Source of the DNA: Thermoproteota archaeon
Lineage (GTDB): Archaea; Korarchaeota; Korarchaeia; Korarchaeales; Korarchaeaceae
Assembly: GCA_027491435.1 (NCBI GenBank)
Contig: JAOZFG010000009.1
Location: forward strand, 1-33,708
Length of the DNA: 33,708 nucleotides
Direction of reading: 5' to 3'
How positions within the stretch are numbered: the first letter of the stretch is position 1; every line of letters begins with the position of its first letter. Below the pieces are notes generated by a model, which was not told the DNA's origin, made no database searches, and saw only the letters and a list, made by a program, of their open reading frames with translations. The translations under genes and the position numbers were made by a program. This document shows, piece after piece, positions 5,884 through 23,968 of the stretch.

Positions 5884-6008
5884 TTAGATAAAAAATAAAA
5901 ACGTAGTTGTGCGACGCCCTCAGTCAAGGGCCCTTTATTTCACATTTACCTCCCTCAGGAGGATTTTTGGGATGACAAGCTTTTCAACTCCTGAACATCG
6001 TTCACCTT

Positions 6009-6764
6009 ATGAGGGAAACGCACGTAATCACCTGTGGGGTGAGCCTCCTAGTTAACACCGCCAGGGCCCTTAAGGGTAAGGGGATTCTAGACGACGAGAA
6101 GCTGAACTCTTTGAGCAACTATGCCAAGATGGAAGAGGTCTTGAACTCTCTATCGCCTGAGGAGAGGAAGGAGCTAAAGGATCAGATGCTGTCTTTCCTC
6201 AGACAGGATCCTAGGAAAGCTAGCGCCGAGATGAACGCTCTCCTGGGTTACTTGAAGGAAGCGGTAGGGGTTGAGGTGGAGAAGGTCCACCTGCTAGTCT
6301 CGGACACTCAGGCCGGTAAGATCACGGCAGACGCCCTGCTCAGTTATCTGGAAGAGGACATGGGCATTGACACCGACAGGCATGTGGTTCAGGGGTTCGG
6401 CTCCGAGGACTTCAAGAGGGCCCTTAAGAACCTGACTAACACGGTCAGGGGGGTAGTGAAATCCTCGAAGAACGTGGTCCTCAACCTGACTGGAGGTTTT
6501 AAGGCTGAGATAGCTGCCCTATCGGCTTTAGCTGCTGAAAGCGGGTTGAGAGCCTATTACATCCACGAGAAGTCCAAGAGAGTGGTTATGCTGCCCACGG
6601 CCGAGGAGCTTAAGGTTAGGGTGACGAGGTGGGAGAAAATAGGCGGAATCTTAGCCCTCCTGCTGGGTTTACCCTATGATTCCCTCTTGGGGTCGCCTGC
6701 TTTCATACCAATAACCGCGGCCTTGGCTGTGGTGACGCTTTGGATCATGTGGACCAAAGCCTGA
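6009..6764 (+). CDS. CARF-domain protein (APE2256/Crn1-like) with C-terminal hydrophobic helices
   Basis: HVITCGVSLL.N, SAEMNAL, VHLLVSDT..G, VVLNLTGGFKAE and YYIHE...V.LP motifs, followed by two hydrophobic segments. Confidence 0.85.
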   Translation: MRETHVITCGVSLLVNTARALKGKGILDDEKLNSLSNYAKMEEVLNSLSPEERKELKDQMLSFLRQDPRKASAEMNALLGYLKEAVGVEVEKVHLLVSDTQAGKITADALLSYLEEDMGIDTDRHVVQGFGSEDFKRALKNLTNTVRGVVKSSKNVVLNLTGGFKAEIAALSALAAESGLRAYYIHEKSKRVVMLPTAEELKVRVTRWEKIGGILALLLGLPYDSLLGSPAFIPITAALAVVTLWIMWTKA

Positions 6765-18351: not shown

Positions 18352-19455
18352 ATGACGCATTTAAGGGCCTTATTCACGCCTAAAGATCCTTTAGAAGATG
18401 CAGAGAGGGCGGCTATGGCTTCTTTGAGGAGAGGAGGTGTTAGCAGCGTTATCTGGGTGGTAACCGAGAGGTGCAATCTCAGGTGTGTCCACTGCTACGA
18501 AGGGGGCAGAGAGCTACCCAAGGAGCTCGGCAAGGAGGAAGCTTTGAAAGTCGTAGATAAGCTATATGAAGCCGGAAAACCGCTTACCTTCATATCCGGA
18601 GGGGAACCTCTGCTTAGAGACGATATAATGGAGATACTGGGCAGGCTGAAAGATCTGGGATTTAGGGTGATTCTTAGCACTAACGGAACCTTAGTTACAC
18701 GTGAAGTGGCCAAAGAGCTGTCTAGAATAGGGGTGGACAACGTGGCAATACCCCTTTACGGGCCTAGGGAGTTCCACGACAGCTTCACAAGGGTGCCTGG
18801 ATCGCACGATAAGGTGATTAACTCGCTGAAACTCCTGAGCGATTTGGGGGTTGGATTAACCGTTAAGACGGTAGTCGCCAAGAGCGTGATGCCTCACATC
18901 AACTACATATTCGACGTGGCCGAGCAATATGGTGCTAGAGCTGTGTACCTCTGTGATTTCATTCCTATAGGGAGGGGGGCTTATCTCAAGCACGAGGTTC
19001 CGACTAAGGATCAATGGAGGAGCCTCCTAGACTCATTTATAGAGAAGATGATCCTGGGGAACGAATACGACGGCGTGGAGATAGATATAGGGCTTCACCC
19101 CTCCACGGCCATATACGTCATGAGGAGGTTGGAGGAGCTGGGATATGACGTGTCTCAGGCCAGGAGTAAAATGGAGAGAAGAAGGCTTTCTGTGGAGGGT
19201 AGAGGTTTCCTATCCATATCCCCTCAGGGAGACGTTCTTTTAAGCAATTACCTGCCGATAAAACTGGGCAACGTGCTTGAGGACGACTTGAAGGAGATCC
19301 TCGAGAACCCCATATACAGGGATGCCGGCGATTCGAGTAAGTTGAAGGGGAAGTGTGGTTCTTGCCCTTACAAGGAGCTCTGTGGAGGGTCCAGGGTAAA
19401 GGCCTTCGTCTACACTGGAGATCTGCTCGGGGAGGATCCGACTTGCGTCATATGA
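18352..19455 (+). CDS. Radical SAM/SPASM protein, Ahb/NirJ-like
   Basis: VIWVVTERCNLRCVHCY, SGGEPL and KGKC..C.Y...CGGSR...EDP.C motifs. Confidence 0.88.
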   Translation: MTHLRALFTPKDPLEDAERAAMASLRRGGVSSVIWVVTERCNLRCVHCYEGGRELPKELGKEEALKVVDKLYEAGKPLTFISGGEPLLRDDIMEILGRLKDLGFRVILSTNGTLVTREVAKELSRIGVDNVAIPLYGPREFHDSFTRVPGSHDKVINSLKLLSDLGVGLTVKTVVAKSVMPHINYIFDVAEQYGARAVYLCDFIPIGRGAYLKHEVPTKDQWRSLLDSFIEKMILGNEYDGVEIDIGLHPSTAIYVMRRLEELGYDVSQARSKMERRRLSVEGRGFLSISPQGDVLLSNYLPIKLGNVLEDDLKEILENPIYRDAGDSSKLKGKCGSCPYKELCGGSRVKAFVYTGDLLGEDPTCVI

Positions 19456-20546
19456 ACTTCAACGAGAGGCCCATCCTGGTCTTCTGGGAGACCACCAAGG
19501 CGTGTAAGTTGAAGTGCAAACACTGCAGGGCAGAGGCGATACCTGAGCCGCTGCCTGGTGAGCTGACCACTGAAGAGGGCTTCAAACTCATCGAGGAGCT
19601 GACTAAGTTCGGGAAGCCTTATCCGATCCTCATATTAACTGGAGGCGATCCTATGCTCAGGCCCGACCTTGAAGAGCTGCTGACCTATGCTGAAAGTAAG
19701 GGCGTAAAGGTGGGAGTGGCCCCTGCCGTAACGGAGCTTCTGAAGGAGAGGTTAAACCTACTCAGAAAGCATGGAGTTAGGTACATATCAATAAGCCTGG
19801 ACGGCATGAAGGAGACCCATGAGAGGATAAGAGGTGTAGATGGCCACTTTAAAGAAACGGTAGAGCTGCTCAAATCGCTAAAGGGGGATTGGATGCTGCA
19901 GGTCAACACGCTCGTCTCCAAGGAGACGGTAAACGACCTTCCCAAGGTGGCCAAACTGTTAAAGGACTTGGGTATAAACGTGTGGGAGCTCTTCTTCCTG
20001 GTTAAAGTCGGAAGAGGGACTGAGCTTGAAGAGCTCACCCCCGAGGAGAATAGAGACGTCTCTCACTTCCTATTCGAGGTTTCTAGGTATGGATTCGAGG
20101 TAAGGACCGTAGAAGCTCCTTTCTTCAGGAGGGTCTACTTGACCAGGTTAAGAGATGGGCTTAGCGACTTGAAGGAGGTTGTTGAGCGTTATAGCCTAGG
20201 AGAGCTGTACGTAAAATTAACAAAAGAGCTTATTAGTTTGCTAGGTGAGCCAGGCAAGCCCAAAGAGCTTAAATCGGCCTTCACGAGGGATGGATATGGT
20301 GTAATATTCGTATCTTATGATGGCAACGTCTATCCAAGCGGATTCGCCCCTTATAGCTTGGGAAACGTCAAAGAGGATAGCCTGGTCAGTATATACAGGA
20401 GCCATCCCGTACTGATTAAGATAAGGGCTGGGGAATTCAAAGGGAAGTGTGGAACCTGTGAGTACAGGGAGGTATGTGGGGGAAGCAGAGCTAGGGCCCT
20501 GGCCGCAGGAGACATACTCGGGGAGGACCCTGGCTGCCCATTTTAG
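19452..20546 (+). CDS. Radical SAM protein, TIGR04053/AhbD-like
   Basis: P.LVFWETTKACKLKCKHCRAEA, TGGDP, RTVEAPFFRR and VYPSGF motifs. Starts at 19452 by ATGA overlap. Confidence 0.9.
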   Translation: MNFNERPILVFWETTKACKLKCKHCRAEAIPEPLPGELTTEEGFKLIEELTKFGKPYPILILTGGDPMLRPDLEELLTYAESKGVKVGVAPAVTELLKERLNLLRKHGVRYISISLDGMKETHERIRGVDGHFKETVELLKSLKGDWMLQVNTLVSKETVNDLPKVAKLLKDLGINVWELFFLVKVGRGTELEELTPEENRDVSHFLFEVSRYGFEVRTVEAPFFRRVYLTRLRDGLSDLKEVVERYSLGELYVKLTKELISLLGEPGKPKELKSAFTRDGYGVIFVSYDGNVYPSGFAPYSLGNVKEDSLVSIYRSHPVLIKIRAGEFKGKCGTCEYREVCGGSRARALAAGDILGEDPGCPF

Positions 20547-20718
20547 TGAGAGAGCTAATACATCCAGTCAATTGATAACATCCAGGTCCTCCAACACTAT
20601 TATCTCATAAAAACCCACTTTTATTATATTCATTTAACTACAACTTGGATCGTATTAGAACTTTCGAAATCAGAGGGAAAGTTTATTTTGTAGGAGACCC
20701 CTTAGTCCAGGTGCATTG

Positions 20719-22179
20719 ATGAATCGTATCTACGTATACATATTAATTATTTCACTCGTAATGCCCCTAACCCTAATATGGGTGGGCGGCGTTCCCCCAA
20801 CTGAAGTCAAGTTGATCCCCCTGGACGTAAGGGAGAGGTCGGGGAGGGACCTGCATAACTACACGGTAAGCGTATACTTAAGGAATTGCGATAATTATGA
20901 GGCGATAGATGAAGAGGGTAACGTCCTCAACACTTTCTGTGACCATGGAAGGCTCTGGATTAAAGTTCCATGGATACCGGCCAACGGCAACGTCACGGTT
21001 TACCTGAGGAAGGGCAAGCCGGGAAGGGCTCAGGACGTATTCCTGCATTACGACGGGTTCGACACCTTGCCAGATTACAGATTAGTTGATTACGCCTTCG
21101 TTATTCAGGGAAAGACCTATTACTGGTATCCATACGTGGTGGGCAATGAGAAGACGTCCCCTAGCCTCAAGGTGTGTAAGAAAGTCAAAGTGTTCACTTA
21201 TAACGGAGAGCTTAGGGCCACCAGGTATGACATATGCGAGCTCGAAATACTGCTTAGGATATTAAAGGTTCCTGATGATGCCGGCATAAGGGTAGACTTC
21301 AGGGGCACCATCATGAGTAAAAGCAAGGACAAGGATCTGTCCTTGGGACTGTTCGGGTTTTCCGGGCCGACGAGTATGGAAAACGTCACCTCAGATGTGA
21401 TAAACAGGTGGCTGGGCTTCTACCATTACTACCACTATAGTTATACACAGAGCGGCGATAGCGGTTGGAGGTTTGCCCTTTACAAGGAAATCTATAGAAA
21501 GGGCTTCTCTACCTACAACACGCTTAAGATTAAGAGGACTCGCCTGGCCATAGACTCACCTCACGTTTACGGGGTAGCCTATTTCAACCAAAAGGTGTAC
21601 GGATTTGTTGATGAGAAGCTGGTTATATCAGCTGAATCAGGTAAATTTGATAACGAATACGTGGGAGTTTTCATAGGGTTTGATCTAGACTTAACAGGAG
21701 CCGAATACGAGTTGGGGATTAGGCCTGACATAATAGGGTCCGCTGATTGGATAATGGTCAGAAAGTTCGTGGATCCCGAGCCTAGGGTTACTATTAAGGA
21801 GCCCATACTGCCGCAAACTCCCAGCCAGACCCAAACAACGCAAACTCAGACGGAAGAGCAGATAGAAGAGATGACGAAAAGCTTTACGGTGATAACAGAG
21901 ACCGTGACTGAGGGGAGCACTCAATGGACCCCCAAGACCGAGGCTCAAGAAACTACAACTACGCAGCCCACAGTTAAACAGCAAGAGGAGCAGAGCTCTC
22001 CTCTTGAGACCACAGTTAAGGAGACGTCCCAAGTTAAGGAGACTCCCTCCGAGGTGACCATTACTACTACGGAACAGGCGGAAGGCGTCCCTGGGGCTGA
22101 ACTGGCGATGCCCGTAATGCTGATAATACTGATAGTGACCGCCTTGCTGCTCCTAGGTAGGGGGAGGAGGGGCTTCTAA
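20719..22179 (+). CDS. DUF2341-type secreted surface protein with Thr/Gln/Glu-rich stalk and C-terminal anchor
   Basis: Signal peptide; WIKVP.IPA.G..TVYL, VF..YD.F and DWI.VRK...PEP motifs; low-complexity linker; TM followed by an Arg-rich tail. Confidence 0.85.
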   Translation: MNRIYVYILIISLVMPLTLIWVGGVPPTEVKLIPLDVRERSGRDLHNYTVSVYLRNCDNYEAIDEEGNVLNTFCDHGRLWIKVPWIPANGNVTVYLRKGKPGRAQDVFLHYDGFDTLPDYRLVDYAFVIQGKTYYWYPYVVGNEKTSPSLKVCKKVKVFTYNGELRATRYDICELEILLRILKVPDDAGIRVDFRGTIMSKSKDKDLSLGLFGFSGPTSMENVTSDVINRWLGFYHYYHYSYTQSGDSGWRFALYKEIYRKGFSTYNTLKIKRTRLAIDSPHVYGVAYFNQKVYGFVDEKLVISAESGKFDNEYVGVFIGFDLDLTGAEYELGIRPDIIGSADWIMVRKFVDPEPRVTIKEPILPQTPSQTQTTQTQTEEQIEEMTKSFTVITETVTEGSTQWTPKTEAQETTTTQPTVKQQEEQSSPLETTVKETSQVKETPSEVTITTTEQAEGVPGAELAMPVMLIILIVTALLLLGRGRRGF

Positions 22180-22249: not shown

Positions 22250-23968
22250 TTGAAACTTAAGCCCAGAGATTACCAGAGAGAAGCGGTTGATTGGGCGTTG
22301 AATGAAGGGAGAGCCGTTGTCGTAATGCCTACTGGAACTGGGAAGACGTTAGTGGCTTCCATGTGGGTAGATGAACTTATGAGAAGTGGTAAAGTGAGAA
22401 AAGCCTTATTTCTAGAGCCTACTCGTTTTTTAGTAGAGCAGAGCGCCAGATTTCTTAGGGAACAAGGGCTGGACGCATCTCCTGTTCATGGAAGCCTACC
22501 TAAAAGTCTGAGACGTGAGGGGTGGGCCAGCAAGGTGGTAGTAGCTACCCCGGAAGTTGTTCTTTCTGATTGGGACAGGTTCAAGAGCGAGAAGTTTGAC
22601 GCAGTGGTGGTGGACGAGTGCCACCACACGACTGGGAAGGACGCCTACCTTAAGGTAGTGAAACATGGGAGGTTCGAATACAGGCTAGGGTTAAGCGCTT
22701 ACGTCCCTCCCTCCAGGAGGAAAGAAATTGAGGAGAACATAGGTAAGATAAGGAGTTGGAGCTGGAGCGATCCCAGGATAGCTCCATACATACCGGAGTG
22801 GGAAGCCGAGGTTTACGAAGCCCCTTTAAACCCGGAGGAGTTCTCCCTCTACGAGGCCATGGAATCCTTATGGGAGTCCCATCACGGACCTGACAGGGCG
22901 CTCTTGGGCAACGCCATAAGGTGGTTCGTTAGGGATGGAGCCTTAGCCTTGCTCGAGTCCATAGAGAACAGCGAGAGGCTGGCTGACCTGCTAAAAGACC
23001 TGAGAAGGGATGTCATGACCGTTAGACCACTCCACAAGCTGGGTTCATTGATGAGAGTCCTGAATGATCACGAGGGGTTTGAAAAGTCGATAATATTTGT
23101 GGAAAGGGTGTCTGTGGCTGAGGCCTTGGCTGAGAAGTTAAGCACGGACGTCCTTATACTGGGGAGGAGGAAGGTGAACCCTAAAGAGGCCATAGCCAAG
23201 GCAAAAATGCCGGAAAACAGGATTATAATTTCCACTAGCGCCGGGGAGGAGGGCATAGACCTCCCTGAAGCTGACCTGCTAATTATCTGGAGCAACGTTG
23301 CCAGCCCCTTAAGGTTCATACAGAGGATTGGGAGGGTGCTTAGGGCCGGCTTAGAGAGGAGGTACAAGTGGGTAGTTTTCCTGGTCACCCCAGATACCGT
23401 TGACGTGGATAGCCTTATAGACGGCCTCCTACAGGCTAAGATGGCAGGAGTATCAGTCAACATAAGCGAGGAGGTCGTAGAATACGTCTGGAGTTTAAGC
23501 AGGAGGAGGAAGTTCTTAGACGCTTTAGACGAGGAGCCTATGCCAGCGGACGTTTTATCAAAGGCTCTGGGGGCCCCGATCAGCAGGACAAGGGAGGCGT
23601 TAAGGTGGCTATGCTCTAGGGGACTAGCCTTCTACATTTTTACGCCTGTCGGCAAGGTATACTTTACAAAGAATTCCTTGAAAAAGTTAAAGGTTAAGTT
23701 TAGGGAGTACCTAGAACCTGACCAGATAGAAGCTAAAGTTAGGGTGAGAAACGATAGGGAATTATCTGTAAGGGGAGGTTACGAGAGAGTTAAAAGGAGG
23801 TTAGCCAAGGTAGGGGCCGTGAGCTGGTTGCACTTCTCAACTGCGCTCATGAGCGGAGGAGTTGAGAGGCTGGTAAACTTAACCTATAACTTTAGGGTTG
23901 AAGACAGAGAGATCCTAGATATTATCCTCAGGAACGCTTACAGTGTCAAGAAGTTTTACCTGTCTTGA
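22250..23968 (+). CDS. SF2 helicase, Hef/Mph1-like, with C-terminal wHTH-like region
   Basis: PRDYQ, MPTGTGKT, DECHH, STSAGEEGIDLP and FIQRIGR motifs; TTG start. Confidence 0.9.
   Translation: MKLKPRDYQREAVDWALNEGRAVVVMPTGTGKTLVASMWVDELMRSGKVRKALFLEPTRFLVEQSARFLREQGLDASPVHGSLPKSLRREGWASKVVVATPEVVLSDWDRFKSEKFDAVVVDECHHTTGKDAYLKVVKHGRFEYRLGLSAYVPPSRRKEIEENIGKIRSWSWSDPRIAPYIPEWEAEVYEAPLNPEEFSLYEAMESLWESHHGPDRALLGNAIRWFVRDGALALLESIENSERLADLLKDLRRDVMTVRPLHKLGSLMRVLNDHEGFEKSIIFVERVSVAEALAEKLSTDVLILGRRKVNPKEAIAKAKMPENRIIISTSAGEEGIDLPEADLLIIWSNVASPLRFIQRIGRVLRAGLERRYKWVVFLVTPDTVDVDSLIDGLLQAKMAGVSVNISEEVVEYVWSLSRRRKFLDALDEEPMPADVLSKALGAPISRTREALRWLCSRGLAFYIFTPVGKVYFTKNSLKKLKVKFREYLEPDQIEAKVRVRNDRELSVRGGYERVKRRLAKVGAVSWLHFSTALMSGGVERLVNLTYNFRVEDREILDIILRNAYSVKKFYLS

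Follow-up and report, generated by a model that had tools for sequence, protein, structure and literature searches.

Several membrane proteins that couple a cyclic-nucleotide sensor to transmembrane (TM) helices have been described. CARF-TM fusions are widely predicted as a class, and in the accounts we draw on the characterised sensor-TM fusions are all effectors. Those accounts present Cam1, Csx23 and Cap1 as membrane effectors that are activated by cyclic tetra-adenylate (cA4) and carry N-terminal TM helices; Cam1 is thought there to lack ring-nuclease activity, that is, an off-switch of its own. The Panoptes type II effector, in the portions of the reports used here, consists of an N-terminal CARF domain and a C-terminal pair of TM helices (2TM) that is removed by truncation after residue 207 or 212, and it is held inactive by cyclic tri-adenylate (cA3) made by mCpol (PMC13577387, PMC12657218). 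Here we describe a gene at positions 6009-6764 (+) of a 33,708-nt stretch of DNA (hereafter the window; contig JAOZFG010000009.1, positions 1 to 33,708) from an archaeon of the class Korarchaeia. Its product, 251 aa followed by a stop codon in the list of open reading frames (ORFs), joins a CARF7 domain of the Crn1 ring-nuclease type to a predicted C-terminal membrane hairpin. We tentatively favour the reading that this protein is a cA4-gated, self-limiting membrane effector of type III CRISPR, acting in trans with two Cmr loci elsewhere in the genome.

Profiles, solved structures and fold comparison agree in assigning residues 1-197 (6009-6599, +) to the large-ring-nuclease type of Crn1 CARF domain (CARF7/Cas_APE2256), bearing out a first-pass annotation that had seen an APE2256-family CARF domain in the first ~195 aa. 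Pfam Cas_APE2256 matched residues 69-197 with 106.6 bits against a cut-off of 24.8 (E 1.2e-30), TIGR02619 matched with 78.6 bits against 37.45 (E 4.1e-22), and the PADLOC profile CARF7--CARF matched residues 3-197 at 1.3e-41. The ring-nuclease equivalog NF040951 gave 43.1 bits against a cut-off of 600 and covered only positions 1-203 of its 322-position model, and the ESM Atlas yielded generic Cas_APE2256 clusters only, with scores of at most 0.87. Searched against solved structures, the family profile found Sis0811 (7pq2, 2.6e-20) and Sso1393 (3qyf, 3.6e-18), followed by Cami1 (8phb, 1e-7). An AlphaFold2 (AF2) model built from our 23-row family alignment (A1) reached a mean pLDDT of 88.9, mostly 90 or more in the CARF part, and Foldseek with this model returned the same three proteins on top (8phb at 3.9e-9) and the Cam1 CARF domain weakly (2e-3). 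The 251-aa ORF has 22 homologues at E ≤ 6e-38. They align from the ATG at 6009, and we therefore retained this start; an AGGAGG followed by an ATG in another reading frame lies 37 nt upstream, at 5957-5974 (+).

The predicted Crn1-type ring-nuclease residues are intact. They lie in two motifs, T8-C9-G10-V11-S12 and N159-L-T-G-G-F-K165, which the first-pass annotation had equated with the Ser and Lys of the Crn1 family, and that equation stands. In the profile hidden Markov model (HMM) alignment S12 (codon AGC, 6042-6044, +) pairs with the catalytic S12 of Sis0811, and K165 (codon AAG within LNLTGGFK, 6501-6503, +) with K169, a correspondence whose position was counted by hand on the printed alignment. 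The catalytic roles of the two Sis0811 residues are taken from the part of the report by Molina et al. (PMC9638899) that we cite. The serine is retained in each A1 row that covers the N-terminus, and K165 is an invariant column.

The protein shares with the Crn1 enzymes Sis0811 and Sso1393 a CARF domain with a helical insert (ASAE-LN motif), the Ser and Lys, and a domain end of the form VV-LP, but differs from them in everything beyond. Sis0811 and Sso1393 continue from VVFLPS and VVILPS, respectively, into a winged helix-turn-helix (wHTH) domain at the C-terminus, whereas VVMLPT in the Korarchaeal protein leads into a linker and a hydrophobic hairpin found in Korarchaeia only. Hydropathy and the AF2 model leave no wHTH in residues 198-251, which comprise the linker and the hairpin with its basic flanks. 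The conserved basic linker, AEELKVRVTRWEK (residues 198-210, 6600-6638, +), has a mean pairwise identity of 61% and near-invariant residues at L201, K202, R204, T206, E209 and K210 in A1. The hairpin (residues 211-248, 6639-6752, +), delimited by hydropathy and AF2, runs through a first helix, a turn of the form P-x-D-S-x-L-G-x-P-x-F and a second helix that contains W245; it amounts to ~38 apolar residues broken by P-Y-D-S-L-L-G-S-P. Within it D224-S225 (codons GAT TCC, 6678-6683, +) form an acidic/polar pair in an otherwise hydrophobic tail. The protein ends in T-K-A (6753-6761, +), where column counts show that homologues usually have a basic [RK][RK]x.

Kyte-Doolittle (KD) hydropathy over a 19-residue window peaks at 1.46 for residues 211-229 and at 1.94 for residues 226-244, and AF2 places helices in the tail at residues 207-219, 223-227 and 232-250. 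The two hydrophobic segments that had been noted after VVMLP are thus found at ~nt 6639-6752, the first of them marginal. Modelling and hydropathy make a two-helix hairpin the likely form, with the first segment marginal on its own. By family column counts, basic residues flank both ends of the tail, and in the distant members P0027, P0028 and the G004 copy a long Lys/Arg-rich C-terminal extension follows. The positive-inside rule places such basic-flanked ends in the cytoplasm, where the CARF domain must also be. Both ends of the tail are therefore predicted to be cytoplasmic, and the tail would then be a helical hairpin with a very short outer turn, a topology that we infer from hydropathy, the AF2 model and this rule.

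The tail is a kept part of the protein. All 19 full-length rows of A1 carry it, down to 46% identity, as do P0027, P0028 and the G004 copy, and it is retained in three family-level lineages of the class. Among the relatives found, no close and clean homologue ends after VVMLP: the short ones are either fragments cut at the N-terminus in which the tail persists (P0004, P0013, P0023, P0030) or off-frame pieces (P0026, P0029). This rules out the strain-specific read-through that the first-pass annotation had considered. In comparisons with the two closest DNA relatives, the tail has a dN/dS of ~0.17 (L056) and a pN of 0.12 against a pS of 0.84 (L055); it is under purifying selection. These observations bear on the idea that the tail is not membrane-embedded at all, being either a fusion or read-through that arose by accident, or a hydrophobic element through which a soluble protein oligomerises. 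The short first segment, which falls below the usual TM threshold, speaks for it. Retention of the tail in all full-length homologues and three lineages under purifying selection argues against it, as do the KD value of 1.94 over 19 residues in the second segment, the basic flanks at both ends, and the expectation that ~38 near-continuous apolar residues would not be soluble. We consider it very unlikely.

Conservation within the tail is uneven. Mean pairwise identity in A1 is 60% for the CARF core, 61% for the linker and 54% for the loop motif; helix 1 (37%) and helix 2 (31%) are less alike. Of the 22 family rows, 18 retain the Asp-Ser pair, in both sub-clades and including P0027, P0028 and the G004 copy; in three of the four rows without it, a Glu stands a few positions downstream of where the pair would be. 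In a greasy tag that serves as a passive anchor, hydrophobicity is all that one would expect to see preserved; conservation of the linker, the turn and the acidic residue points instead, at the sequence level, to a specific role of the tail.

The architecture has a narrow distribution. The family profile, run against 1.84 billion representative proteins, gave 1897 matches with E-values up to 1e-3, of which 13 reach 1e-30 or lower. Among the 150 of these 1897 matches that were listed, 11 extend to profile position 240 or beyond, and nine of the 11 have a hydrophobic tail. The loci that we fetched contain 64 motif-bearing CARF7 ORFs. In ten of them, two of which repeat contigs already represented, hydrophobicity peaks 46-66 residues beyond the motif, and all ten belong to the Korarchaeal family; in the remaining 54 the maximum is an in-domain helix or does not exceed 1.56. 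Host names in the homologue records are Korarchaeota, Korarchaeum and unclassified Thermoproteota or Crenarchaeota. Judged from these sequences, the combination of CARF7 and hairpin is confined to one clade of Korarchaeia, with members in 10 of 40 genomes of the class. One of these, the G002 copy (L144; G002:C62:7170-7715, -), has four stops and apparently two frame changes, and is either a pseudogene or the product of an assembly error; its tail is still hydrophobic, with Glu instead of Asp.

In a maximum-likelihood tree of 93 rows the 20 family rows form one clade (SH-aLRT 97). The tree came from a quick IQ-TREE search of an alignment that included the tail columns, which favours this clade, and two family rows (P0016, P0018) fell under the hydropathy threshold used for labelling it, with tails visible in A1. 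Because the family rows cluster in one clade and hydrophobic maxima after the motif occur only in the Korarchaeal family, the tail fusion is best read, on this phylogeny, as having a single origin.

The genome that carries the gene offers a candidate source of signal. No spaced repeat array was found in the window, and a Pfam scan of 20 other window ORFs turned up no cas gene (~12 ORFs of at least 100 aa lie outside that scan), in line with the earlier statement that cas genes and arrays are absent here. The label 'orphan' that had been given to the gene holds within the window and fails genome-wide. A search for cas10, suggested at the first pass, found two Cmr2-type Cas10 genes on other contigs of the 1.64-Mb, 99.5% complete genome (C43:30340-33489 and C25:4272-7628). 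Both adjoin RAMP genes and both have, by simple pattern match, an N-terminal HD motif and a GGDD or GGDE cyclase motif; Cas1 is encoded elsewhere. A Csa3 regulator (C43:11281-11928; Csa3_N at 3.4e-29 plus a helix-turn-helix domain) is the sole other CARF protein recognised in this genome. A simple k-mer scan of the assembly found only one CRISPR array, six repeats at a contig end next to Cas1 (G000:C4:10202-10518); others are probably unassembled, as arrays are likely to interrupt the assembly. Profiles for Csx1_HEPN, Csm6_HEPN, Cas02710, SAVED, Cas_NE0113, Csx1-type CARF and the CARF4 nuclease found nothing in the genome apart from the CARF7-hairpin gene itself and Csa3, the Csm6_HEPN and SAVED profiles being silent in all control genomes too, which makes their silence weak evidence. 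With no other effector family matched, the CARF7-hairpin protein is the only recognisable candidate for a growth-arrest effector in its genome.

Other unassigned or recurrent proteins lie near these CRISPR genes. A 666-aa ORF (C43:24271-26274, -; L017:4271-6271) sits at the downstream end of the Cmr operon and matches no PADLOC or Pfam family. Paralogues that combine a coiled-coil DUF3782 with a PDDEXK_10 nuclease domain occur by CRISPR genes at C43:12033-12644, C43:21607-22521, C18 (L153:1492-2142) and L023:9096-9809. One of them adjoins Csa3, another near the Cmr operon matches the PADLOC profile 'C3a181', and in L023 a 52%-identical homologue stands directly upstream of the CARF7-TM gene.

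The first-pass annotation had set out two alternatives, a tethered ring nuclease and a self-limiting membrane effector gated by cyclic oligoadenylate that works in trans with a distant type III system, and they are still the two leading readings. Both predict binding and cleavage of cyclic oligoadenylate by a cytoplasmic CARF dimer at the membrane. In the mechanism we propose for the effector, target RNA would activate Cas10, whose GGDD/GGDE motifs suggest that it then makes cyclic oligoadenylate. By homology to Sis0811 and Sso1393, cA4 would be bound in the two-fold pocket of the CARF dimer. Closure of the dimer could be relayed through the conserved linker ELKVRxTxWEK to the hairpins, both ends of which would be cytoplasmic, with the Asp-Ser pair in or near the turn. 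A shift in hairpin packing or oligomeric state might then, on the model of Cam1, Csx23, Cap1 and the Panoptes CARF-2TM proteins, leave the membrane leaky or depolarised and arrest growth. S12 and K165 would finally cleave cA4 and reset the switch.

Comparison with the described cA4-dependent effectors shows both likeness and difference. Like Cam1, Csx23 and Cap1, the protein fuses a cyclic-oligoadenylate sensor domain to a small, here predicted, TM module, for which depolarisation and growth arrest are the expected outcome in the accounts cited above. Unlike it, those proteins have their TM helices at the N-terminus, form tetramers and use sensor domains of other families. Cami1 (CARF7-RelE) shares the CARF7 clade (8phb) and is, as its published description has it, an effector that also degrades cA4; its output is a ribosome-dependent RelE RNase in place of the membrane hairpin. 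CARF7 therefore already includes an effector with intrinsic ring-nuclease activity, which we count in favour of the effector reading.

The principal rival is a membrane-anchored ring nuclease, in which the hairpin only tethers a Crn1 enzyme that degrades cA4, silences Csa3 and unknown effectors and has no toxicity of its own. We regard this as a possible explanation, if a doubtful one. Sis0811 and Sso1393 are the best matches in both sequence and fold, S12 and K165 are conserved, and the tail is short with variable helices. Such an enzyme, however, gives no obvious reason for the conserved linker, the P-x-D-S-x-L-G-x-P motif and the buried acidic residue, and these same features lead us to favour an effector. 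Our literature search found no description of a membrane-anchored ring nuclease, whereas the characterised sensor-TM fusions, within the sources available to us, all point to effectors. In its own genome a ring nuclease would also have no recognised toxic effector to restrain.

Neighbouring genes in other genomes weigh on the same choice. Three of the 10 family-positive genomes (G017, G023 and G002), spanning two family-level lineages, encode a 253-aa CARF5/Cas_NE0113 protein right next to the family gene; it is a stand-alone protein, found at L148:5564-6322 (-), L020:8932-9690 (-) and G002:C62:6367-6897. Among solved structures the small ring nuclease Sso2081 comes closest to it (5e-7), and the Ser/Lys motifs LG-SP and GGRK align. 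From these sequences the layout of CARF7-hairpin plus CARF5 looks like that of an effector with its ring nuclease, and this pairing is a further reason to prefer the effector reading. An anchored ring nuclease would instead adjoin a second ring-nuclease-like CARF protein in three genomes. In the part of the survey by Hoikkala (2025) that we draw on, a locus seldom has two ring nucleases (10 of 242), and 81% of Cam1 loci also contain a ring nuclease; the same source records that ring nucleases can act in trans and occur without a known effector in 31 loci, which suits the anchored enzyme. Csx1 was found in 8 of the 40 class genomes and in only 2 of the 10 family-positive ones. We count this low overlap for the effector reading; the co-occurrence itself, in G025 and weakly in G028, counts for the anchored ring nuclease. 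G017 has Cas10 and RAMP genes and no Csx1, the only toxic effector checked there, and this too favours the effector.

Links between the family and CRISPR loci are seen in some genomes. The G028 copy stands last in a block of Cas10, RAMP genes and a type I cas cluster, ~17 kb from Cas10; Tandem Repeats Finder found no tandem repeats in the gap between the G028 cas clusters (L146). In G025 (L023) the gene directly precedes Csa2-, Cas5- and Cas3-like genes, and in G002 it lies 3 kb from RAMP genes.

Several points weigh against a type III membrane effector. Evidence of Cas10 (TIGR02577) or RAMP genes was obtained for 6 of 10 genomes with the family and 15 of 30 without it, which is no enrichment, and four family-positive metagenome-assembled genomes (80-96% complete) show no type III genes. 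The hydrophobic part is small, at ~38 residues, its first half lies at KD 1.46 below the classical TM threshold, and the hairpin helices themselves are the poorly conserved part of the protein, at 31-37% identity. The absence of other CARF or SAVED families from the genome rests on a limited set of profiles, and the 666-aa ORF of the Cmr operon could encode a type III effector, or an accessory protein, of an unrecognised kind. Most directly, the nearest relatives by sequence and fold are dedicated ring nucleases with the catalytic pair intact, and an anchored plain enzyme would look identical.

The Panoptes type II effector is among the closest described systems and matches the protein in layout. 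Both have an N-terminal CARF domain of ~200 aa followed by a C-terminal two-helix segment, predicted to lie in the membrane in the Korarchaeal protein, and they are similar in size. Reversed architecture had been suggested at the first pass: the domain order is indeed opposite to that of Cam1, but it is not unprecedented, since Panoptes type II effectors, unrelated in sequence, show the same CARF plus C-terminal 2TM order. The Panoptes proteins differ in their CARF family, their mCpol partner, their ligand cA3 and a longer tail of ~55 aa, while the ring-nuclease residues are kept in the Korarchaeal protein. In 301 cyanobacterial genomes we found 16 mCpol matches, six of them linked to genes for CARF-2TM proteins of 257-261 aa with TM helices at about residues 200-260. 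In these six loci (L164, L166, L167, L169, L170 and L171) an ORF of 122-130 aa with the mCpol match accompanies the CARF_m9--CARF_TM protein, and by sequence they look like Panoptes type II systems. The cyanobacterial proteins match the PADLOC profile CARF_m9--CARF_TM (PDLC01992) at 1e-62 or better; the A1 HMM matched none of 48 ORFs from the 16 mCpol loci, and hhalign of A1 against a Panoptes-type alignment (A2) gave a probability of 0.35%. No stand-alone mCpol was found in the gene's own genome, where PF18182 matched weakly inside Cas10 only, nor in the 40 class genomes. With no profile similarity and no mCpol, the shared layout is convergent and not homologous, and the logic of Panoptes is unlikely to apply here.

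A guard of the Panoptes kind would be silenced by a constitutive cyclic nucleotide and become toxic once a virus removes that nucleotide. The architecture and size of the mCpol-linked CARF-2TM proteins, whose mechanism is taken from the portion of PMC13577387 cited here, would fit such a guard, as would the four family-positive genomes that show no type III genes. Against it stand the missing mCpol and the assignment of the Panoptes proteins to CARF_m9--CARF_TM, with no profile similarity to A1; moreover, if its ring nuclease were active, the protein would itself degrade the ligand that silences it. We think a guard highly improbable.

The surroundings of the gene give few clues to a partner. 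Its window neighbours include an Opp-type ABC transporter, small membrane proteins (DUF4405, DsbB-like), an ABC-2 exporter and a glycosyltransferase, and the window further encodes an iron repressor, radical-SAM enzymes, an XPB-like helicase and a CLC channel. ORFs flanking the homologues in L019-L024 match no window ORF near the gene. The ABC operon downstream is a core gene set that is sited elsewhere in relatives, and the position of the CARF7-hairpin gene is therefore unique to its own genome. These data touch on another alternative, a membrane sensor or adaptor, with the signal bound by the CARF dimer and a hairpin that would recruit or control a second membrane protein or move the signal to another place. 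A protein-protein interface could be formed by the conserved linker and loop, and with no fixed gene neighbours the partner would be a core membrane protein. Yet no conserved partner gene was found, the sole recurrent neighbour is the soluble CARF5 protein, and the literature search turned up no precedent; an adaptor seems unlikely to us.

Two further observations concern the window itself. A 487-aa ORF at 20716-22176 (+) that matches no Pfam family stands directly upstream of an XPB/ResIII-type helicase (22250-23965, +) and may be a nuclease partner of it. Tandem radical-SAM/SPASM proteins are encoded at 18352-20543 (+), and homologous pairs also occur near the family gene in L022.

A CARF domain with a C-terminal 2TM is itself already known from Panoptes type II; what is new here is a Crn1-type CARF7 domain with a predicted C-terminal membrane hairpin, found in one archaeal class. 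Our literature search, which did not take in the 2020 CARF census of Makarova et al. and its supplements, found no description of this Korarchaeal family. The CARF plus C-terminal 2TM layout has then arisen at least twice, once alongside mCpol in bacteria and once, in hyperthermophilic archaea, out of a Crn1 enzyme. Should the protein be no more than an anchored ring nuclease, it would still represent the first case of signal removal localised at the membrane, none having been found in the literature. If it is the effector that we favour, a bolder proposal, which we put forward as speculative, is that a ring-nuclease-competent CARF domain acts through the conserved linker on a minimal two-helix hairpin, whose conserved Asp would lie within the membrane, to give a cA4-gated membrane leak that resets itself. 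This would make it the first type III membrane effector with a built-in timer, having arisen independently of Cam1, Csx23, Cap1 and the Panoptes CARF-2TM proteins by replacement of the wHTH in a Crn1 enzyme. Membrane effectors that respond to cyclic oligoadenylate are still poorly understood, and the best-understood ring-nuclease fold joined, within 251 aa, to a membrane module of ~40 residues would make a very small and tractable model. Such a model could reveal what links the binding of a ligand to an event at the membrane and what sets the timing of that event.

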